Part shown: piece after piece, positions 3,799-39,782 of the stretch | Layout of the letters: each line of letters begins with the position of its first letter | Position numbering within the stretch: the first letter of the stretch is position 1 | Source: a virus | Taxonomy: Duplodnaviria; Caudoviricetes | IMG/VR virus record: IMGVR_UViG_3300033148_004975 | Location: 1-52,560 of that record | Strand: one strand, 5' to 3' | DNA length: 52,560 bases | Notes under the pieces: model-generated | What the model was told of the DNA's origin: nothing | The model's input: the letters and a program-made list of their open reading frames with translations, nothing else | The model's database searches: none | Made by a program: the position numbers and the translations under genes

Positions 3799-3841
3799 GG
3801 GGTAGGTCAACAATATTATGTTGGCCTACCCCACCTTTTTT
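3799..3841 (+). terminator. Rho-independent terminator
   Basis: 14-bp stem GGGGTAGGTCAACA/TGTTGGCCTACCCC (one G-U), 6-nt loop, then ACC-T6, directly after the DUF932 stop. Confidence 0.85.
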
Positions 3842-3874
3842 ACAATATATTTGAATAGAATAACTAAAGCCCAA

Positions 3875-4444
3875 ATGTCAAAGGCTCCACAAAAAAGTTG
3901 TCCTAAATGCAATAATAAAATTCATGTTAGAAGAAAACAATGTGATTGTGGATTTGTATTTGTCAGTAAAAATAAGAATAGAAATAAAGACAAAAAGAAA
4001 AAGACCACAAATCAAAAATCAATTAAAACATATACTACGCCTGGAAGAGGCAAAAAAAGATGTCAACAATGTAAAACACTAGTTGGTGTTAGAACAAAAA
4101 TATGCCCAATATGTAAAAGTGAAATCGTATCAAAAAAGATTATTAGAGAAAATATAAAAAGAGAAATAGAAAGTCTAGATTGGAAGACACTAAGCGTTAA
4201 TGACATAATATTATCTATATCTGGTGGCCCAGTATTTGAAACAGAAGAAACATCACATAATCTTGGACACTATGGAAAATTTAAAATTAAAGAAATAGTG
4301 AATGATGGCATTTTATGTTATGGAATGGAAAAATTAAATCACGGTGTATACTATTTATATATGGGCAAGCCACGTATATCTAAGTATGGAACAAACTTAA
4401 GGCCACATAAAATAAGGGTATTAAGAAAAGCGACCAATCAATAG
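3875..4444 (+). CDS. basic protein with two double Zn-ribbon motifs
   Basis: CPKC..CDCG and GKKRCQQC..RTKICPIC. Start moved to ATG 3875 because 3818 lies inside the terminator. Confidence 0.7.
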   Translation: MSKAPQKSCPKCNNKIHVRRKQCDCGFVFVSKNKNRNKDKKKKTTNQKSIKTYTTPGRGKKRCQQCKTLVGVRTKICPICKSEIVSKKIIRENIKREIESLDWKTLSVNDIILSISGGPVFETEETSHNLGHYGKFKIKEIVNDGILCYGMEKLNHGVYYLYMGKPRISKYGTNLRPHKIRVLRKATNQ

Positions 4445-4459
4445 GCCAAACACATAATT

Positions 4460-4831
4460 ATGCGAAAATATATCAAAAAAGCTAAAAGGATATTGCACAA
4501 TTGTCCCAATAGTCAGCATGTAACATTTATTGTTAAACGAAACACAATAATATGTTACGGCGTGAATAAAAAATATAAGACAGCGCCACTAGCTAAAAAA
4601 TTTGGACATAGATTCAGCGCCATACACTCTGAATTAGCCGCAATTAAATCTTTTCCCTACCCCATTGTACAGCTCCCCTCTTTTAAAATAATAAATGTGA
4701 GAATAAAGAAGAATGGTGACGTTGGATTGTCTAAACCATGTAGACATTGCCAGACTATGTTGTGGTTTTTTAATATAAGACAAATATATTACTCAACTAA
4801 TAATGGTGGATTTCGCAAATTAATAATATAG
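4460..4831 (+). CDS. small Zn-dependent cytidine/dCMP deaminase-fold protein
   Basis: H-S-E (IHSELAAI) and PCxxC (KPCRHC) motifs. Confidence 0.8.
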   Translation: MRKYIKKAKRILHNCPNSQHVTFIVKRNTIICYGVNKKYKTAPLAKKFGHRFSAIHSELAAIKSFPYPIVQLPSFKIINVRIKKNGDVGLSKPCRHCQTMLWFFNIRQIYYSTNNGGFRKLII

Positions 4832-4974
4832 ATAACAATCTAGAAAGTAGTAATTATCTCATCCCTATCTCGCCTTTTCGTCAAGATATTCTGGTTGTAG
4901 CACACCTAACACATATCTGAATAAAATTTCCGTTCTTTTATTGTCAACAATCGTCCGTCGCATTATGAGTAAGT

Positions 4975-5205
4975 AGAGGGGATGGTTACGACATCACAGA
5001 GTTACCAAATATAGTGAATGCGTAACCTAGAATAAAGGACAACAGGATAAGGTTTTCCTCGAACCAATTAAACAAAAACACGATGATTTTGTGTTTTTGG
5101 GTTAGCTGGGGCGGTATTTGTTTATACTTACTGTCCTAGTATGGGGATTTTGTGTGCATATTTATTGGACAATTTTTTTCTAAAAAATGTCTCAAACCCC
5201 CCAAA
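4975..5205 (+). ncRNA. candidate structured RNA (cluster of abutting hairpins), family unknown
   Basis: Stems 4984-4990/5021-5027, 5073-5081/5091-5099, 5106-5116/5129-5139 (3 G-U pairs on +) and about 5143-5200; no ORF. Confidence 0.4.
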
Positions 5206-5211
5206 AGTGGT

Positions 5212-5240
5212 TTGACAAAATGCGATTTTCTCCGTATTGT
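5212..5240 (+). promoter_or_regulatory. sigma70-type promoter
   Basis: TTGACA (5212-5217), 17-nt spacer, TATTGT (5235-5240). Confidence 0.65.
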
Positions 5241-5243
5241 AAA

Positions 5244-5531
5244 ATAGATACGAAAGTATCTATGGCAGGGAGTGGGAGCAACTGGTAATTCTATAGGTGA
5301 GCGAAACGTAGTACGGAAACACGTTCCAATAAGAAATGCATAACGACGTAAATAAAAAAGAGAGGATGGTGTACGAGATGTGAGAATGATAGCAAAGTAT
5401 GAATGTAGTGAAAGCCCTCACCAAGAATAATAGGTAGTAGCTAGTGAAACAGAAATAAACATATAGAATCTAATAGTAACTAAAGTAACAATAGTAGAGG
5501 AAATAGTATATAGAAACTCTCACTCTTTTTT
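5244..5531 (+). ncRNA. candidate ~285-nt structured RNA or structured 5' leader, family unknown
   Basis: Starts just after the promoter. 8-bp GAAA-tetraloop hairpin 5244-5263; 12-bp end-closing helix 5267-5278/5517-5528 running into a T-tract; nested helices 5289-5295/5509-5515 and 5296-5301/5417-5422; no ORF. Confidence 0.5.
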
Positions 5532-5542
5532 AGGATAATATC

Positions 5543-6043
5543 ATGCACGAAATAAGGGGAGATTTTTGGGAAGAATTGCAATCTAATTACTATGATGCTG
5601 CTTGTTGCACAACAAATATGGTTTGTAAGAATAATGGCGATCTTGTAATGGGAGCTGGAATAGCTAAAGAATTTGCTGCTAAATTTCCAATGTTACCAAA
5701 AATTTGGGGAAAAGCCACCACTATAATAAAAAACGGCAAGCTTTCATCTAACTTAATAGTTGAAGATATTCGTGATTGGAATATGGATCAAACAGAACAC
5801 CCCATGTATCTAGTTTCTTTTCCTACTAAATACCATTGGAGAGAGAAAGCAGATATAACACTAATAAAAAGATCGGCACTACAATTATATACTATCTCAC
5901 AATCTCTTGGATGGATTAAAATTTTACTTCCAAAACCAGGTTGTAAAAATGGTGGCCTAAATTGGAAAAATGAAGTTAAACCAATTTTAGATACAATATT
6001 AGATGATAGATTTTGGGTAATTTCTAATTTGGAGAATAAATAA
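5543..6043 (+). CDS. macro domain (ADP-ribose binding/hydrolase, Poa1p-like) protein
   Basis: TTN...MGAGIAKEF, FPTKYHWR, PKPGCKNGGLNW. Confidence 0.85.
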   Translation: MHEIRGDFWEELQSNYYDAACCTTNMVCKNNGDLVMGAGIAKEFAAKFPMLPKIWGKATTIIKNGKLSSNLIVEDIRDWNMDQTEHPMYLVSFPTKYHWREKADITLIKRSALQLYTISQSLGWIKILLPKPGCKNGGLNWKNEVKPILDTILDDRFWVISNLENK

Positions 6044-6493: not shown

Positions 6494-7328
6494 ATGTCAA
6501 GCAAAGTAAAACAATTAACAGATGCAAATCTTATTAAGCCACCTTCATTCGTATACCATAATACTATGTATGAGACCATTATGGGTAGTGTAGCATATGG
6601 TATATCTAATAATACTTCCGATATGGATATATATGGGTGGTGTATACCTCCAAAAGATATAATATTTCCACATTTAGCAGGACAAATTGATGGATTTGGT
6701 AGACAAAAAAGACGATTTGAACAATTTCAACAACATCACATTTTTAAATCTGACGAAATAGGTGGTTGTGGTCGAACATACGATATTTCTATTTACAATA
6801 TTATTAAATATTTTCAACTTTGTATGGATAATAATCCTAACATGTTAGATTCTTTATTTACGCCCCAAGAATGTGTTTTACACATTACTCAAGTTGGCAC
6901 AATGGTTCGAGAAAACAGAAGAATATTTTTACATAAAGGTTGTTGGCACAAATTTAAAGGCTATGCTTATAGTCAATTACATAAAATATCTAATAAAAAC
7001 CCACGATGAATGTGAACAAATATTACGATATGGAGATTTAGATTTACAACGTAATAAAGAACATTTAAAAGCTATTCGTAGAGGAGAAGTGTCCGAAAAA
7101 GATATCCGCAAATGGGCTTCTGATAAAGAAAAACAACTTGAAATGCTATATAATAGTGATAAATGCTCTATTCCATATTCTCCAGATGAAAATAAGATTA
7201 AAAATTTATTATTAGCATGTTTAGAACATCATTATGGTAATCTTTCTAATGTTGTTGTTGTACCAAGTAAATTTGAAATCATACTAAAGGAAATTATAGA
7301 AACGATTAGAAAATATCAATTAATCTAG
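6494..7328 (+). pseudogene. Pol-beta superfamily nucleotidyltransferase (RlaP/PF10127-like), disrupted near nt 7003
   Basis: GSVAYG..SDMDIYG NTase motif and NPNMLDSLF in 6494-7009. The C-terminal half (DECEQIL..DLDLQR..LKAIRRGE) is in another frame ending at 7328. Confidence 0.8.
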
Positions 7329-9075: not shown

Positions 9076-9102
9076 CTCACTTTAGGTGTGGAGGATTTAA
9101 AA

Positions 9103-9282
9103 ATGCGTGGTGATGTAAAATACGTTCAAACTGGTACCGTTAAAGGAAAGAAAGACTGTCCATCGTGTGGGGAACAAATGATTCCAGCTAGGACTAGAGT
9201 TTGCCCAAACTGTAATTATGAATTTTATCCACCAAAAAAGAGTTGTGAAAAGGTGGAAAATTCAACTGAAAAGGCTGAATAA
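9103..9282 (+). CDS. small double Zn-ribbon protein, copy 1
   Basis: GGAGG RBS; GKKDCPSC..RTRVCPNC. Confidence 0.75.
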   Translation: MRGDVKYVQTGTVKGKKDCPSCGEQMIPARTRVCPNCNYEFYPPKKSCEKVENSTEKAE

Positions 9283-9319
9283 TTAAATGCTAGGCTATTT
9301 AGGTATGGAGGATTTAAAA

Positions 9320-9463
9320 ATGAAAGGAAAGAAAGACTGCCCATCGTGTGGGGAACAAATGATTCCAGCTAGGACTAGAGTTTGCCCAAACTGTAATTAT
9401 GAATTTTATCCACCAAAGCAAAGTCGTGAAAAGGTGGAAAATTCAATTGCAAAGGCTGAATAA
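9320..9463 (+). CDS. small double Zn-ribbon protein, copy 2 (47 aa)
   Basis: GGAGG RBS; MKGKKDCPSCGEQMIPARTRVCPNC..AKAE*. Confidence 0.7.
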   Translation: MKGKKDCPSCGEQMIPARTRVCPNCNYEFYPPKQSREKVENSIAKAE

Positions 9464-9467
9464 TTAA

Positions 9468-9614
9468 ATGCTAAGCTATATATTTACTACCGATATTACA
9501 ATATTTGATCTTGTATTTGCTGGTACGCTTATGACACTGGTTGTTTTATTTATGCATGTTATAACTCGAATTATATCACAAATGAGGAGAATAAAATGTC
9601 GTTTAATAAAGTAA
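9468..9614 (+). CDS. putative small membrane protein (48 aa)
   Basis: MLSYIFTTDITIFDLVFAGTLMTLVVLFMHVITR..; hydrophobic helix followed by a basic tail; overlaps the ssb start. Confidence 0.35.
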   Translation: MLSYIFTTDITIFDLVFAGTLMTLVVLFMHVITRIISQMRRIKCRLIK

Positions 9615-13427: not shown

Positions 13428-13991
13428 ATGATAGTGCCATTATATGGTGTTAGAGAACTTAACATTGATGTTAATAAAGATATGGAAATTTTAACACAAA
13501 AAGAATATGAAGAATTAGCAATTAAAAGTATTTCACTACATGGCGGCAAATTAAGAGCTGTTCTCATGAATAGTGAGGATGCCATATCATATGTTATGTT
13601 CAAATTGATGATTGCATCATATAAGTGGGATAAAAGAATATCAGATCACAAATTATATTTATGGTATTGTGGAAAATATGCTGTGCAATCTATTACTACT
13701 GCCTGGTATAAAAATAGCGAAAGATATCCAATACATAAATCATTAAATGAGCACTTATCTGTTTATCAAGATAATGAAGATAACTATGATGCCGATGCAA
13801 TAAACGAGATGAAAAATATTATTAAAAATGCCAAATATTTAACAAAAAAGGAAAAAGAATATTCATTATTAGTTGCTGATGGTAATAATTTTACAGAAAT
13901 AGCCACAATGTATAATGTAACTAGACAAAATGTACAACAATTAGTTAGCTTTGCAACTAAGAAAATACGAGACAATGAAGATTTGGATTAA
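13428..13991 (+). CDS. sigma70-like factor (region 2 plus region 4 HTH)
   Basis: EDAISY..KWD..YLWY; LTKKEK..FTEIATMYNVTRQNVQQ; real start may be 13482. Confidence 0.7.
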   Translation: MIVPLYGVRELNIDVNKDMEILTQKEYEELAIKSISLHGGKLRAVLMNSEDAISYVMFKLMIASYKWDKRISDHKLYLWYCGKYAVQSITTAWYKNSERYPIHKSLNEHLSVYQDNEDNYDADAINEMKNIIKNAKYLTKKEKEYSLLVADGNNFTEIATMYNVTRQNVQQLVSFATKKIRDNEDLD

Positions 13992-17067: not shown

Positions 17068-17140
17068 CGCATAGAACAACATGGGCACAATCCAATGTGT
17101 AATGGGATGTAAAACAACATAAATAACAAAATAACTAGAA

Positions 17141-17179
17141 GGCTGCCACTATAAAATAATAGTGGTAGCCTTTTATTTT
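17141..17179 (+). terminator. Rho-independent terminator
   Basis: 12-bp stem GGCTGCCACTAT/ATAGTGGTAGCC followed by TTTTATTTT. Confidence 0.85.
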
Positions 17180-34693: not shown

Positions 34694-36580
34694 ATGGCAT
34701 ATATACCGTTACATGTACATAGCGACAATTCTATCTTAGATGGCCTATCAAAAGTTAAAGAAATAGCTAAACGAGCATCTGATATAAACGTTGAAGCTTG
34801 TGCAATTACTGATCATGGTAATATTTCTGGAGCAGTGCAATTTATATCTGCTTGTAAAGATAATAATATCAAACCAATTATTGGCGTAGAAGCATATATA
34901 TGCAATGATGATCCCAAAATAAAGGATAAGAACAACAAATCCCTATCTCATTTGGTTCTTCTTGCCAAAAATATTAATGGATTTAGAAATTTATTAAAAA
35001 TTATTAACTTGGCAAATGATCCAGAACATTTTTATTATAAACCAAGATTATCTTTAGAATCATTAACAGAAGTTGATGTTAATGATTTAATCTGTATAGA
35101 TGGACATCTTGGCTCTCATTTGTCTACTTTTTTATTTGGAGAAAATAATTCTATAAATATTGATGCGGCAATACAATCAGTGAATTATAAAAAAGATATA
35201 TTTGGTAGTGAAAATTATTTTCTTGAATCACAATTAATTGACGTAGAAAACCTACCTATAACTAAACAATTAACTTCCATTGTTAGAGAAATTGGAAAGA
35301 AAACAAATACAAAAATTGTAGCCACACCAGACGCACATTATACAACGAAAGAAAGTGCCATTGATCAAAGGGTACTATTATGCATCAATATGAATAAACC
35401 AATTATTGATATTAATAGAAAGATCGTTAATGGTGATAATAATATACCATTATCTCAGTTCTTTAAATCATTCAATTACCATATTCCAACAGAAATAGAA
35501 ATGAAAGAAGTTGGACACACAGAAGAGGAACTTGCTAATTCTGTGTTAATTGCCAATATGTGTGAAATATATGATTTGAAGAATAAGCCAATTATTCCTC
35601 ATTTTGAATGCCCAAATAATCTAACTTCATCTGAATATCTAAAACAAGTTTGTAGAAAAGGATGGGTTAATAAAAGAGATAAAATAGAAAAAGTATTATC
35701 TAAGTTAAATATTGATAAAAATGTATACGGTGATAGATTTAGAGAAGAATTTAATACTTTAGAAGAGGCAAATTTACATGATTATTTTTTGGTTATCTAT
35801 GATATAGTTCAATTTGCACACAACAATAATATATATTCTGGTGCAGGCAGAGGTTCTGTTGGTGGATCTTTAATAGCATATTTAATGGATATAACAAAAG
35901 TAGATCCCATTGAACATGGCCTTATTTTTGGAAGATTTTATAATAAAGGAAGAAATACTGAAGATAGAGTATCATTACCAGATATTGATTTAGATTTTGA
36001 AATGTCGGGTAGAGAAACAATAATAGGTTATTTAAAAGAAAAATATGGTCATGATAATGTTGCACAAATGATTACGTTTAATAAAATGCAAGGAAGAGCA
36101 GCAATTAAAGATGTATTAAGAGTATGGGAAGCGTGTCCATTTAATGTAATGAATGAAATTACCGAATTTATACCTAATGAGGCGGAAATTGCAGATCAAC
36201 TTCAAGCGATGAAGGATGAAAATGATGATGATAGTGCTAGTATAATAAAATGGGCATTAATCAATCATAAAGGCGATCTAAAGGAATGGGCTGTATTAAA
36301 TGATGACGACACAATATCTGGACCGCTTGGCAAAAGATTTGAGCAGGCTATAAGATTGGAAGGCACAAAACGTAGCCATGGAAAACATGCTGCTGGAGTA
36401 GTTGCGGGAAATGAACCATTATATAATATATGTCCTATGATTTATGATACCGTAACAAAACAAAAAATATGCGGATGGGAAATGAATGATTTAGAATATG
36501 TTGGATTAACTAAATTTGATATTTTGGGACTTGCATTATTAGACAAAATACATGAAATAACTAATCTTTTAAAAGGATAA
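34694..36580 (+). CDS. dnaE: DNA polymerase III alpha, N-terminal half (PHP plus palm/thumb)
   Basis: LHVHSD, TDHG, DAHY, GRGSVGGS, PDIDLDF, KHAAGV, KFDILGL; ends 15 aa later. Confidence 0.93.
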   Translation: MAYIPLHVHSDNSILDGLSKVKEIAKRASDINVEACAITDHGNISGAVQFISACKDNNIKPIIGVEAYICNDDPKIKDKNNKSLSHLVLLAKNINGFRNLLKIINLANDPEHFYYKPRLSLESLTEVDVNDLICIDGHLGSHLSTFLFGENNSINIDAAIQSVNYKKDIFGSENYFLESQLIDVENLPITKQLTSIVREIGKKTNTKIVATPDAHYTTKESAIDQRVLLCINMNKPIIDINRKIVNGDNNIPLSQFFKSFNYHIPTEIEMKEVGHTEEELANSVLIANMCEIYDLKNKPIIPHFECPNNLTSSEYLKQVCRKGWVNKRDKIEKVLSKLNIDKNVYGDRFREEFNTLEEANLHDYFLVIYDIVQFAHNNNIYSGAGRGSVGGSLIAYLMDITKVDPIEHGLIFGRFYNKGRNTEDRVSLPDIDLDFEMSGRETIIGYLKEKYGHDNVAQMITFNKMQGRAAIKDVLRVWEACPFNVMNEITEFIPNEAEIADQLQAMKDENDDDSASIIKWALINHKGDLKEWAVLNDDDTISGPLGKRFEQAIRLEGTKRSHGKHAAGVVAGNEPLYNICPMIYDTVTKQKICGWEMNDLEYVGLTKFDILGLALLDKIHEITNLLKG

Positions 36581-36587
36581 AGAAAAA

Positions 36588-37271
36588 ATGGATAAAAGAT
36601 ATATTATTAGCTTAGACTTGGAAACAAGTTCTCTAGATACGAAAAACTGTGAAATATTAGAAATAGGTGCGATTGCCATCAATCCAATTAACTTTACTAT
36701 TGCTGATAAATTTTCTTCACTCGTTAAACCAGATAAGATGGATGAAATCAGTCAATCTGCATTAGATGTTAATAGAATATCTAAAGATGAATTAGAATCT
36801 GCACCAGTCTCAAAAGTCGTATTTGATATGTTTGGTGAATGGATAACAAAATTTAATTATAGTAATAATAATAACATTTTCAGTGCTCCTATATGTGCTG
36901 GATGGAATATAGTAAATTTTGATATGCCTATTTTAGATAGATATCTTAAAAAATATAATTTTTGGGATAATAAAAGAAATCAGAGAAAATTGTTAAGTCC
37001 ACTTATAATTATGGATGTTATGCATTATATGTGGTGGTTAACAAGAATAAATGATGATATTAAAAGTATAAGCATGGGAAATATGTTAAAATATATGGGC
37101 ATTAATAAAGAATTAATTGGTGATAAAGCACATAGAGCATTATGGGATGCAGAACAAACAGCTAATGTTATTATTAAAATACTAAAATTAGGTAGATTCC
37201 TTACAGAAAAGAAAGAAGATGGAAAAAGAAGACTAGAGTTAAAAAATTGTATGATTGATAATAATGCGTAA
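36588..37271 (+). CDS. dnaQ: DEDDh 3'-5' exonuclease (epsilon-like)
   Basis: DLETS, GWNIVNFD, HRALWD. Confidence 0.88.
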   Translation: MDKRYIISLDLETSSLDTKNCEILEIGAIAINPINFTIADKFSSLVKPDKMDEISQSALDVNRISKDELESAPVSKVVFDMFGEWITKFNYSNNNNIFSAPICAGWNIVNFDMPILDRYLKKYNFWDNKRNQRKLLSPLIIMDVMHYMWWLTRINDDIKSISMGNMLKYMGINKELIGDKAHRALWDAEQTANVIIKILKLGRFLTEKKEDGKRRLELKNCMIDNNA

Positions 37272-37812
37272 TTCACATATCGTCTTCAAAAATTCATATG
37301 ATTGTGGATTATCAACGGAAGAATTATTTAAAAGATGCCTTGCAAAATTAAATATATTTTCCAACATAAGAATAGCATCACAACACGATAATCATAATTT
37401 ACATATAGATATATGGGCTACTCTAAATAAATCCAACAAAGATAAATCTTTTAGCATAAAATCAATGAAAAGAATAAAGAGACATAAAAATCTTCAAGAT
37501 GAATATTTTATAGTTGAGTTAGCTAATAATGCACATAAAATTAATCCAGATGGTTGGCTTTTTGGTGGAGCGGCAGATTTTATCGCTTCTATGAGGCAAT
37601 CTTATTTTTTGGTGATGCTAATGTCGGATTTACAAAAATTTATTAGATCTTACATTCAACCAGACTTTAAAAAGAGGGCGATTAAATATAATAATCCTTC
37701 TCCATATATAGTGTATTATAGAAGAGAAAATATTAAAAGGCGTGATTATCTTATGTTAGTTCCATATAGTGATATAGAAAAATATCTTAAATGTATAAAA
37801 TTAAAATTTTGA
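37264..37812 (+). CDS. restriction-endonuclease-fold (PD-D/ExK-like) protein
   Basis: HIDIW..SIK..VEL..GWLFGGAADFIA pattern. Confidence 0.5.
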   Translation: MRNSHIVFKNSYDCGLSTEELFKRCLAKLNIFSNIRIASQHDNHNLHIDIWATLNKSNKDKSFSIKSMKRIKRHKNLQDEYFIVELANNAHKINPDGWLFGGAADFIASMRQSYFLVMLMSDLQKFIRSYIQPDFKKRAIKYNNPSPYIVYYRRENIKRRDYLMLVPYSDIEKYLKCIKLKF

Positions 37813-37836
37813 TAAATAGTCAATAAGGAGTATGTT

Positions 37837-38121
37837 ATGTTTATTAAGCATATCAGAAATATCAATGGACAACCATTTGCTACTGTTGCAGTAGGTGATA
37901 GTGGAATTGGTTTTGCGATTTGTAATGAAGATGATCAATTTTCTAAAAAGATTGGAAGAAAAATTGCAATATCTAGAGCAAACAACCCAAAATTCAATAT
38001 TAATGAATTTATAAATAGATGCCCTAAAAGATGTGTAAATTCTAAAAATGGCTATCTTCCATTGCGTAATATTATTGAAAAAGAAATTAACCATATTAAA
38101 CAAATATATATGCGTAATTAA
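37837..38121 (+). CDS. hypothetical phage protein
   Basis: AGGAG RBS; GFAIC..DQFSKKIGRKIA..RA. Confidence 0.7.
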   Translation: MFIKHIRNINGQPFATVAVGDSGIGFAICNEDDQFSKKIGRKIAISRANNPKFNINEFINRCPKRCVNSKNGYLPLRNIIEKEINHIKQIYMRN

Positions 38122-38123
38122 AA

Positions 38124-39782
38124 ATGGGTAAATTGATTTATAAATGTGGTTGCGAATTTATCATTGATGATGGCACCAATAATATTATATATTGCAATGA
38201 TCCTACAAAAGATGTGCCTTCACACGGTGTTATATTAAATATATATGATGTTCCGCTTGATTGTCCAAAAACATGGGATATGTTTGCACAAGCACATAAT
38301 GTTGGCATTTTTCAATTGGAAAAATCACTTGGCAAACAATGGATGAAAAAAGTTGCACCGCGAAATATTGAAGAATTATCTGCACTTATTTCAATAATGA
38401 GGCCAGGAGCATTAAAATCTGTATCTGGAGACCCCCCTAAAAGTATGGCACAAAGATATGTTGATCGAAAATATGGCAAAGAAAGAATTGATGATTTTGG
38501 TGTTCCAATTTTAAAAAATATTATGGAAGATAGTTTTTCTGTTCTTATTTATCAAGAACATGCAATTAGAATTGCTCAAGAAATAGCTGGATTTAATGAA
38601 CAAGAAGCAGATATATTAAGAAAAGCAATTGGTAAAAAAAATGTAGAAGAAATGACCAAACTTGAAAATAGTTTTGTTGAAGGATGCGCAAAAACTGGTA
38701 TTGTAAATTCTAATAAAGCTAAGGAAGTATTTTCATGGATTCGTGAATCACAAAAATATTCATTTAATAAATCACATGGAACTCAATATGCCATCAATTC
38801 TTATTGGTCTGCTTACTGTAAAGCACATTTCCCTTTGCAATTTTATTGTGCTTATTTACGATTTGCAAAAAATAAACAAGATAGATTTGAAGAAATATAT
38901 AATATAATTAATGAAGCCAAACTACTCAATATTAATGTTTGTCTTCCAGATATTCGAGATATGGAAGAAACATTCTATATAAAAAATTCAGATATTTATT
39001 TTGGTTTAACAGATATTAAAAATATTGGTAGTGCTAATTTACAAAAGGCAATTAATACAATATGGGGATCTTTTTATGACAGGAGTTTTTCAGACATTAC
39101 ATGGGAAGATATATTAATATATTGCGATAATATTCCTATAACAGTTTTAGAATCTTTAATTTCATCAGGTGCTTTAGATTTTTTTAATGTTTCTCGTTCA
39201 ACTATGCTATTTCAATTAAATATAACACATGATAAAATCACAAAAAAAGAAAGAGAATGGATAAAACAACATTATAGTGGAGAAGGGCTTATAGAAATAT
39301 TAAGAAAATGTGCAAAAACTAAGAGAGAAGGTGGGGGTTGTTCCAATAAGAAAAGAATAGATATACTAAATAGTATTGCTAATTCAATAGAAAATCCACC
39401 AAGATCACTTAATGATGGGGTAGAATATATTGCATGGTTAGAAAAAGAATATCTTGGAGCATCTATATCGTGCCATGTAGTTGATGGCAATAAAGAATCT
39501 GTTAAAGCTAGTCATATTTGTAGAGATATAATTAATGGCAACAATCAATTTATGATTATAGCCGCCCAAATAGATAGAATTAATGTTATTACAACAAAAA
39601 ATAATAAAAAAATGGCTTTTCTAACAATTTCAGATTCTTCTTGTGCTGTAGATGATGTTGTATGTTTTCCTGATGTTTTTGAAAAAGTACAAAATATATT
39701 ATTTGATAATAATATTGTATTGCTTTATGGTTCTGTTGGTAAAAGAGGAAATTTTATATGCTCGAATATCACCCAAATATAA
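38124..39782 (+). CDS. dnaE: DNA polymerase III alpha, C-terminal half (fingers, HhH, OB)
   Basis: GIFQLE, MRPG, LIYQE, RKAIGKK, YSFNKSH, FGLTDIKNIG, EKEYLG, MAFLTISD. Confidence 0.93.
   Translation: MGKLIYKCGCEFIIDDGTNNIIYCNDPTKDVPSHGVILNIYDVPLDCPKTWDMFAQAHNVGIFQLEKSLGKQWMKKVAPRNIEELSALISIMRPGALKSVSGDPPKSMAQRYVDRKYGKERIDDFGVPILKNIMEDSFSVLIYQEHAIRIAQEIAGFNEQEADILRKAIGKKNVEEMTKLENSFVEGCAKTGIVNSNKAKEVFSWIRESQKYSFNKSHGTQYAINSYWSAYCKAHFPLQFYCAYLRFAKNKQDRFEEIYNIINEAKLLNINVCLPDIRDMEETFYIKNSDIYFGLTDIKNIGSANLQKAINTIWGSFYDRSFSDITWEDILIYCDNIPITVLESLISSGALDFFNVSRSTMLFQLNITHDKITKKEREWIKQHYSGEGLIEILRKCAKTKREGGGCSNKKRIDILNSIANSIENPPRSLNDGVEYIAWLEKEYLGASISCHVVDGNKESVKASHICRDIINGNNQFMIIAAQIDRINVITTKNNKKMAFLTISDSSCAVDDVVCFPDVFEKVQNILFDNNIVLLYGSVGKRGNFICSNITQI

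Follow-up and report, generated by a model that had tools for sequence, protein, structure and literature searches.

The 711-nt gap and its neighbouring genes

The window analysed here covers an IMG/VR virus record from end to end (52,560 nt; estimated completeness ~34%), and its plus strand carries essentially all of the genes. It contains a single large gap in 52.5 kb that holds no small ORF, a 711-nt stretch (4832-5542) that separates a cytidine/dCMP-deaminase-like gene (4460-4831; PF00383, E = 1e-6) from a gene for a 166-aa protein (5543-6043). On reading, the other gaps of more than 130 nt mostly carry small ORFs, so that 4832-5542 is the one large non-coding stretch of the window. Stop codons number 8-30 per frame in all six frames of this gap, no credible ORF is present in any frame, and reassigning any one stop codon leaves every plus-strand frame closed. 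A preliminary description of positions 5212-5531 had called the interior of that stretch free of ORFs, and the stop counts agree with this. A 93-codon stop-free stretch on the minus strand was rejected as a gene; it has no usable start and is expected from the pyrimidine-rich composition. Mini-ORFs in the putative leader were set aside likewise, since on reading of the sequence they lack a ribosome-binding site (RBS). Stop counts and reading of the gap reveal no leader peptide with an RBS, and a tRNA/tmRNA search found none.

Although the window's own 166-aa protein has no Pfam match, its sequence relatives indicate that it is a macro domain: PF01661 is precomputed for 15 of 50 homologues, and a profile built from 23 proteins of the family matches the macro-domain PDB chains 5m3i (E = 1.6e-19) and 5m31. 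Downstream of this gene, hereafter the macro gene, lie an RlaP-type nucleotidyltransferase gene (PF10127), dUTPase and nucleoside deoxyribosyltransferase-like genes and genes for RNA ligase, ribonucleotide reductase, DnaB and a split DnaE. The matches to PF00383, PF10127 and the two macro-domain chains bear out the gene context first proposed for the stretch (deaminase, macro domain and RlaP). The features of the gap are collected in Table 1.

Table 1. Features in and next to the gap upstream of the macro gene (positions in the window)
Feature	Position	Strand	Details
Structured element, outside 5212-5531	5056-5148	+	Predicted hairpins 5073-5099 and 5105-5140, closed by UCCUC/GGGGA
AT-rich imperfect inverted repeat (I8), just 5' of the -35 hexamer	5165-5196		Arms 5165-5179 and 5182-5196, 73% complementary
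Sigma-70-type promoter-like site	5212-5240	+	TTGACA 5212-5217, 17-nt spacer, TATTGT 5235-5240; 10/12 matches
Perfect 8-bp hairpin, C(GAAA)G tetraloop	5244-5263	+	ATAGATAC-GAAA-GTATCTAT; at the predicted transcript start (~5246-5248)
Polypurine AGGGAGUGGGAG	5267-5278	+	Two tandem SD-like GGGAG; 5' strand of the proposed end helix
Purine-rich, ORF-free interior	5279-5516	+	108 A, 53 G, 50 T, 27 C; no significant structure
Cluster of three AATAGTA motifs	5472, 5490, 5502 (5472-5508)	+	Low-complexity repeat, ~9 nt
Pyrimidine tract CUCUCACUCUUUUUU	5517-5531	+	3' strand of the proposed end helix; other partners 5353-5362 and 5554-5562 (macro ORF)
AGGA ribosome-binding site and macro-domain gene	5533-6043	+	AGGA 5533-5536; ATG 5543; 166 aa; from ORF call and family profile

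Promoter-like site, hairpin and predicted folding

The TTGACA-N17-TATTGT promoter reported earlier sits where it had been placed. Judged by the sigma-70-type hexamers TTGACA and TATAAT spaced 16-18 nt apart, the site agrees with the consensus at 10 of 12 positions, although its -10 hexamer matches at only four of six and an extended TG is absent. It is oriented toward the macro gene, and is the only one outside an ORF among five plus-strand promoter-like sites with a perfect TTGACA. The position of the elements speaks in their favour, the promoter-like site lying outside an ORF and the hairpin starting 4 nt past the -10 hexamer. The frequency of such sites does not: in three scanned parts of the window we count 17, 135, and 166 promoter-like sites against 27.0, 137.6, and 166.0 in dinucleotide shuffles, and the 27 plus-strand sites in the window with at least 10 of 12 matches correspond to an expectation of 0.37 per 711 nt. 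Since shuffling does not lower the frequency of such matches, the 5212 match alone is not above chance and is by itself no proof of activity. The sigma-70 and Shine-Dalgarno (SD) consensus logic is in any case an assumption, and about half of the genes (31 of 67) have no recognisable SD sequence. Directly before the macro gene, the sole promoter-like site is a 9/12 match at 5511.

The perfect 8-bp GAAA-tetraloop hairpin given in the preliminary description was likewise located at 5244-5263, where it also forms a perfect 20-bp DNA palindrome overlapping the predicted position +1. It is predicted to be stable, with a pair probability of 0.66-1.0 (0.83-1.0 with position 5244 included), and because it begins so soon after the -10 hexamer, the predicted start at 5246-5248 would leave the transcript with a paired 5' end. 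The hairpin sequence occurs once in the window when up to three mismatches are allowed; counting this one, the window has 12 distinct perfect hairpins with stems of at least 8 bp. The receptor for GAAA tetraloops is an 11-nt motif with the halves UAUGG and CCUAAG; by eye, UAUGG is seen at 5261-5265 and CCUAAG is absent. Shortly after the hairpin comes AGGGAGUGGGAG, an SD-like polypurine within a putative leader and without a start codon of its own, as in the STAB-SD and polypurine class of elements. There is no ATG, GTG or TTG 5-13 nt downstream of the doubled GGGAG, the first such codon being the GTG at 5297-5299, 19 nt past the second GGGAG. On the plus strand GGGAG occurs 10 times in the window, and four of these copies fall within 5268-5650.

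Central to the preliminary description was a 12-bp helix closing the ends of the RNA, formed by AGGGAGTGGGAG (5267-5278) and CTCTCACTCTTT (5517-5528). Both strands are at these positions and make 12 pairs, three of them G-U, but uninterrupted helices of at least 12 bp (G-U allowed) are also present in 15 of 300 dinucleotide shuffles of 5244-5535, and the predicted pairing vanishes in longer transcripts. Only RNAs that end at 5532 or 5545 give it a pair probability of 0.65-1.0 (about 1); the value falls to 0.01 or less in transcripts that run on to 5700 or 6050, or that begin at 4832. For the RNA ending at 5532, the MFE structure and the centroid alike contain the hairpin and the end helix, at a probability of ~1.0. 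In the long-context RNA, the pyrimidine tract is predicted to pair with AAGGGGAGA (5554-5562) inside the macro ORF (probability 0.89 with the end at 5700), which places the RBS and the AUG in a 26-nt loop, and polypurine 5267-5278 pairs with 5676-5691 in the coding region. Moreover, 5353-5362 is a perfect 10-nt complement of 5523-5532 (inverted repeat I17). With several purine partners available, a lone pyrimidine tract in a purine-rich region can pair variously, and in these folding models the 'paired ends' result from the ends chosen for the RNA. Ribosomes in translation would strip the coding-region partners, so that the long-range end helix might still form in vivo, although nothing in the predictions singles it out.

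The RNA as a whole folds no better than expected. A 302-nt transcript (5244-5545) has a folding energy of -48.1 kcal/mol, compared to -47.2 +/- 4.3 kcal/mol for its shuffles (z = -0.22), and an equally good energy is reached by 41 of 100 shuffles; the opposite strand of the same stretch gives z = -0.56. An energy clearly below that of shuffles, which would mark a structured ncRNA, is not found for 5244-5545. The sequence TTCTATA (5289-5295) does have copies of TATAGAA at 5462 and 5509, as described for a nested helix with switching partners, but the ensemble probabilities are 0.01 for the helix 5289-5295/5509-5515 and 0.08 for the alternative with 5462-5468. The helix between GGTGAG (5296-5301) and CTCACC (5417-5422) reaches 0.93-0.99 at the positions first given for it, but does so solely in RNAs ending at 5532 or 5545.

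The interior is as purine-rich as had been claimed, 5267-5516 being 68.8% purine, although this value, the maximum for the window, is also reached by two coding stretches at 2440 and 3965. Taken alone, 5279-5516 gives z = +1.0 (50 of 300 shuffles fold as weakly), and every 100-nt window within 5250-5549 has z between +0.9 and +1.9, which makes the region locally less structured than its shuffles; this positive-z run ranks 8th of 1045, and comparable runs are seen in several coding regions. The three AATAGTA motifs lie within 37 nt of each other (5472-5508) out of 28 matches on both strands of the window, and Tandem Repeats Finder reports a period of 9 with 2.9 copies at 5470-5496. The G clusters after the promoter-like site prompted us to consider an R-loop origin, which we regard as a remote prospect given the A-rich interior (45% A, 22% G) and a cumulative GC skew that makes no turn in this region. 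An internal duplication of the gap was also rejected, the similarity between 5008-5035 and 5402-5430 being weak and equalled in score by 14 of 500 shuffles.

The best local folding signal in the gap, according to these models, is instead the element at 5056-5148, in which the second hairpin (5105-5140) comprises 12 pairs, four of them G-U. The fold of 5040-5160 has an energy of -36.1 kcal/mol (z = -3.83; 0 of 200 shuffles fold as well), a wider fold of 4940-5215 gives z = -3.2 (again 0 of 200 shuffles), and for the element itself the minus strand is far weaker than the plus strand (-16.4 versus -34.3 kcal/mol). Among 1050 windows, each compared with 30 shuffles, it ranks 5th by z and 2nd by energy. 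Since the same scan of the whole window returns six windows with z < -4 and 22 with z < -3, several of them inside genes, the element is notable rather than unique. Its location upstream of the 5212 promoter-like site means that it would be carried by a transcript reading through from the deaminase operon, or else by an RNA that starts elsewhere.

The 3' boundary of the stretch does not resemble an intrinsic terminator, understood as a local GC-rich hairpin with a loop of 3-8 nt followed by a U-tract. A U-tract is present at 5526-5531, but the helix before it is long-range, with 238 nt between its strands, and a terminator scan of the gap (4832-5542) returned no terminator-like site. Throughout the scanned region 3500-47999, the only strong plus-strand terminators are at 3799-3832 (14 pairs) and 17136-17175 (17 pairs). 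The T-tract does lie just ahead of the RBS of the macro gene, as the preliminary description had it: the T6 run ends at 5531, the AGGA begins 1 nt later and the ATG follows at 5543. With no terminator, an RBS 1 nt past the T-run and only the weak 5511 site to serve the macro gene, transcripts from 5212 are most simply read as entering that gene. The sequences and positions of the elements, and the lack of ORFs and of terminator-like sites in the gap, are direct observations. All of the elements of the preliminary description are thus in place and the observation is partly confirmed, with support beyond chance that is marginal.

Searches for relatives and known RNA families

No Rfam 15 family matches the window at the gathering thresholds, which is what had been expected if the RNA were novel. 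Even with E values up to 10, the region 4700-5700 gives only three matches, all to microRNA hairpins (E at least 3.7; 16.9-18 bits against gathering scores of 82-90), and no Rfam cis-regulatory family is found there. The curated RNAs of Rfam 15, among them large phage-associated ncRNAs and riboswitches, share with the present stretch their type of location in a phage intergenic region, but none of them matches it. A blastn search of 4800-5600 at a distant setting against 50,697 phage records gave no match, and an exact 19-mer from the polypurine region does not occur in the viral contigs. On 53 RlaP loci, blastn of the gap returned only chance matches (E at least 0.46) and nhmmer none; in 80 metagenome loci with a macro gene, both programs were likewise without a true match. 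A covariance model of the upstream element (5054-5150) matches only itself among the window and 99 loci, and a match in one of these (L095; E = 7.4) was discarded as chance.

The neighbouring genes tell a similar story. Neither the deaminase nor the DUF932 neighbour has relatives in the viral contigs, the N-terminal half of DnaE reaches at most 33% identity, and at most 34% in phage records, and a lineage-specific protein alignment (A2) finds nothing in viral contigs or genome contigs. The RlaP nucleotidyltransferase does have 52 relatives at 47-65% identity, but in unrelated neighbourhoods, its gene being a mobile module that shares no synteny. Homologues of the macro protein reach at most 64% identity among those found. 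The preceding ORF could be placed in 71 of 80 of their loci, and the gap upstream of the macro gene is then at most 221 nt long, with a median of 9 nt; none of the 71 loci has an upstream gap of at least 300 nt, and the gap is not a conserved partner of the macro gene. The only true relative of the phage is L055, with 12 common genes at 25-59% identity, in which the macro gene lies between homologues of o16744 and o17199, the deaminase gene is not adjacent and the gap region is absent. The displaced macro gene indicates that the neighbourhood has been rearranged. A TTGACA with a hairpin and T-tract upstream of the macro gene in L055 was examined as a parallel architecture and rejected, because that hairpin occupies the position of the window's own terminator at 17136-17175, after the o16744 homologue. 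Judged from these comparisons, the contig appears to represent an orphan lineage.

Candidate readings of the stretch

Our tentative preference, which we hold with limited confidence, is that the stretch is a sigma-70-type promoter together with a ~296-nt 5' leader of the macro-domain operon, carrying a 5' hairpin and an SD-like polypurine. That the finding is a promoter-proximal part of an mRNA, and not a free-standing RNA gene, is the most likely interpretation. The preliminary description had left the choice between a discrete RNA and a regulatory leader, and this two-way interpretation is partly supported: its leader half agrees with a promoter-like site that faces the next gene, an RBS 1 nt past the T-tract and the lack of a terminator-like site between them. 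We infer that a host sigma-70-type promoter at 5212-5240 would start transcription near 5246-5248, at the 6-8 nt past the -10 hexamer that such promoters use, and that the transcript would cross an untranslated leader of ~296 nt (5247-5542) into the macro gene and the genes behind it. Its first nucleotides would fold as the stable GAAA-tetraloop hairpin without a 5' overhang, and ~20 nt further on would come the SD-like polypurine AGGGAGUGGGAG with no start codon after it. Known 5' mRNA stabilisers are defined by these same two features: decay that depends on the 5' end is blocked by base pairing of that end or by a bound 30S subunit. By likeness to them, the first ~35 nt would be a putative 5' stabiliser of an early mRNA. 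The U/C-rich tract before the real RBS would most simply be part of the translation-initiation region, and not a terminator tail. Pairing of this tract with the polypurine over 12 bp is thermodynamically possible while ribosomes hold the coding region open, and any role for that long-range helix would be an addition that the proposed leader does not need.

The comparison is with the 5' mRNA stabilisers known from Gram-positive bacteria and from their phages, as covered in the review PMC3997798, which include 5'-terminal stem-loops such as that of the aprE leader, the 'STAB-SD' of cryIIIA and a polypurine 5' stabiliser. The review describes them for organisms without RNase E, and we read the first ~35 nt in the same way. 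The reviewed examples and the present stretch have in common a stem-loop at the (here predicted) extreme 5' end, upstream of a long mRNA, and an SD-like polypurine in the leader that is distant from any start codon. They differ in that the ~296-nt leader is far longer than these elements need, and in that this putative leader carries GGGAG twice instead of a full GGAGG. The same excess of length argues against the leader-stabiliser reading itself, as a stabiliser leaves the ~240-nt interior and its three AATAGTA motifs unexplained. In addition, promoter-like sites of equal quality are expected at 0.37 per 711 nt, the -10 hexamer matches at four of six positions without an extended TG, and perfect 8-bp hairpins are not rare, with 12 in the window. 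Related macro loci manage with short upstream gaps (at most 221 nt in the 71 of 80 loci), and the L055 macro gene sits at another genome position without the gap region.

An alternative that we consider rather unlikely, although it comes next in probability, is that the gap is spacer DNA with chance motifs, non-functional or decayed by the shuffling of modules, and that the macro gene is read through from upstream. In that case the promoter match, the hairpin and the helix would have arisen by coincidence in AT-rich and purine-rich DNA. Each feature on its own is near chance level, the tract pairs with several purine runs (5267-5278, 5353-5362, and 5554-5562), no terminator separates the deaminase and macro genes, the rearranged neighbourhood in L055 is in keeping with module exchange, and 5008-5035 has a weak similarity to 5402-5430 (14 of 500 shuffles score as high). 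Phage genomes are compact, however, and a sole large gap in 52.5 kb is not readily attributed to spacer. A perfect -35 hexamer, a 17-nt spacer and an immediate perfect hairpin are also jointly unlikely when there are ~12 such hairpins in 52.5 kb, and the upstream part of the gap carries a significantly structured, strand-specific element. A leader of a more elaborate kind would use the competing helices as a switch, with tract 5517-5528 alternating between polypurine 5267-5278 and 5554-5562 (which would place the RBS and AUG in the 26-nt loop), and with a protein or the ribosome itself using it to tune translation or decay of the macro mRNA. The folding models do predict two mutually exclusive states, the long-range helix at ~1.0 with the end at 5545 and the local helix at 0.89 with the end at 5700; GGGAG motifs cluster to either side of the tract, and a protein could bind at the three AATAGTA motifs shortly before the RBS. 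We nevertheless find this switch improbable, as its basis is single-sequence thermodynamics, the pairing of the 5' strand with 5676-5691 in long contexts shows how far the predictions depend on context, and neither an Rfam cis-regulatory match nor a leader peptide with an RBS accompanies it.

The hairpin could also be a candidate protein-binding site, either in the DNA, as an operator for a dimeric repressor (8-bp inverted repeats around a 4-bp spacer, centred on the predicted transcript start), or in the RNA, as a nut/boxB-like hairpin bound by an antiterminator. Operators commonly overlap +1, as the perfect 20-bp palindrome does with the predicted start here, and a second imperfect AT-rich palindrome lies 5' of the -35 hexamer. 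In the lambda nut site, boxB is a hairpin with a GNRA-like loop that lies downstream of an early promoter, and the present GNRA-loop hairpin likewise lies just downstream of a putative early promoter; it differs from lambda-type nut in its 8-bp stem and true tetraloop and in having no adjacent boxA, and no N-like protein was identified. We consider this reading slightly less probable than the switch. The hairpin is a single site in the 52.5-kb window (up to three mismatches) with no regulon visible, albeit on a contig that covers ~34% of the genome, no boxA-like partner is adjacent and the analysis yields no candidate binding protein. Lowest in our estimate, and very unlikely, is a discrete ncRNA of ~285 nt transcribed from 5212, clamped by the 12-bp helix and released at the T-tract, with a trans-acting role as decoy, sponge or scaffold. 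Hairpin and end helix are present in the MFE and centroid structures (~1.0) of an RNA ending at 5532, the helix is followed by a T6 run, few interior pyrimidine runs compete for the 5' strand, and the negative Rfam result is compatible with novelty. The 'terminator' would require a loop of ~240 nt, however, and the scan reports none; the macro gene would be left without a strong promoter of its own, having only the 9/12 site at 5511; and no homologue was found in any collection searched. The claim of a discrete, end-paired structured RNA gains no support from its folding either, which equals that of shuffles overall, has interior z values of +0.9 to +1.9 and loses the end helix in longer RNA. 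Genes for sRNAs, with their promoter and intrinsic terminator, resemble the stretch in the promoter-like site, the ORF-free transcript and the T-run at the proposed 3' end, but here a local GC-rich terminator hairpin is missing, the helix spans ~240 nt and the RBS of a gene follows at once. We hold it just as doubtful that a free, purine-rich RNA of ~285 nt, clamped by the 12-bp helix and with a deliberately unstructured interior of repeated AATAGTA/AGTA and GGGAG motifs, would act in trans as decoy or sponge against a defence factor of the host that binds or targets RNA, and be co-expressed with the macro gene as an anti-defence pair; Rfam contains no RNA class like such a decoy or sponge.

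A discrete trans-acting RNA would matter more than a leader, because RNA-based anti-defence factors are few in phages. The negative results are of practical use: they show that the 'paired ends' depend on the assumed stop of the RNA. If, as we tentatively prefer, the stretch is a promoter with a leader, it would represent a routine phage expression architecture in which an early promoter and a stabilising leader precede a probable anti-defence macro-domain gene. Such a leader would not be surprising, and would aid the annotation of an orphan phage lineage.

Elements upstream of the macro-domain gene

The DUF932 gene is followed by a strong intrinsic terminator (see table). It overlaps position 3818, which is listed first among the starts of the following ORF, and because of this overlap the true start of that ORF is probably later, for example near 3875. 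Between this terminator and the macro-domain gene lies a strand-specific structured element, the predicted fold of which (z = -3.83; none of 200 shuffles being equally stable) ranks second for stability among the 100-nt windows of the contig. A covariance model of the element found no homologue elsewhere in the window or in 99 loci fetched through homologue searches.

Coordinates of the features discussed in this section and those that follow
Feature	Position	Strand	Details
Strong intrinsic terminator	3799-3842		14-bp stem, 8 GC pairs, then T-run; 3' of DUF932 gene
Structured element	5056-5148	+	Two hairpins, 5-bp closing stem; 5' of putative promoter
Macro-domain gene	5543-6043
RlaP-type nucleotidyltransferase	6494-7328		Two overlapping frames, 6494-7009 and 6873-7328
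Two small, near-identical tandem zinc-ribbon ORFs	9076-9470		Motif CPSCGEQMIPARTRVCPNCNYEFYPP
187-aa protein	13428-13991		Weak sigma-70 region 4 match (PF04545, E = 0.0015, below cut-off)
DNA polymerase III alpha (DnaE), split	34694-39782		PHP/NTPase half 34694-36580; finger/HhH/OB half 38124-39782

Macro-domain and RlaP-type genes

Profile comparison places PDB chains 5m3i and 5m31, with the depositor titles 'RNase III inhibitor' and 'Appr-1-p processing domain protein', among the closest to the macro-domain protein, together with the O-acetyl-ADP-ribose deacetylase 1/C6orf130 macro domains. It is plausible that this protein is an eraser of ADP-ribosylation, which makes its gene a candidate anti-defence gene. 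The genome position of this gene differs between the window phage and L055, its one true relative.

The frame break in the RlaP-type gene is close to an A-run (6995-6999). Its homologue in another locus (L004) is a single 313-aa ORF, about 30 residues of which have no counterpart in the window's gene. Either the window's gene is frameshifted or has decayed, or the break comes from an error in sequencing; programmed slippage is a further possibility.

Tandem, divided and possible sigma-like genes

Each of the two zinc-ribbon ORFs is preceded by a GGAGG RBS, and the pair looks like a recent tandem duplication. Three ORFs separate the two DnaE halves, and this split looks conserved, because relatives of the first intervening ORF (36588-37271) adjoin DnaE pieces in four fetched loci (L058, L081, L082 and L084). 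Finally, the 187-aa protein, which is conserved in the relative L055 with 37% identity, may be a phage sigma-like factor. If so, phage-specific promoters for later genes would be implied.
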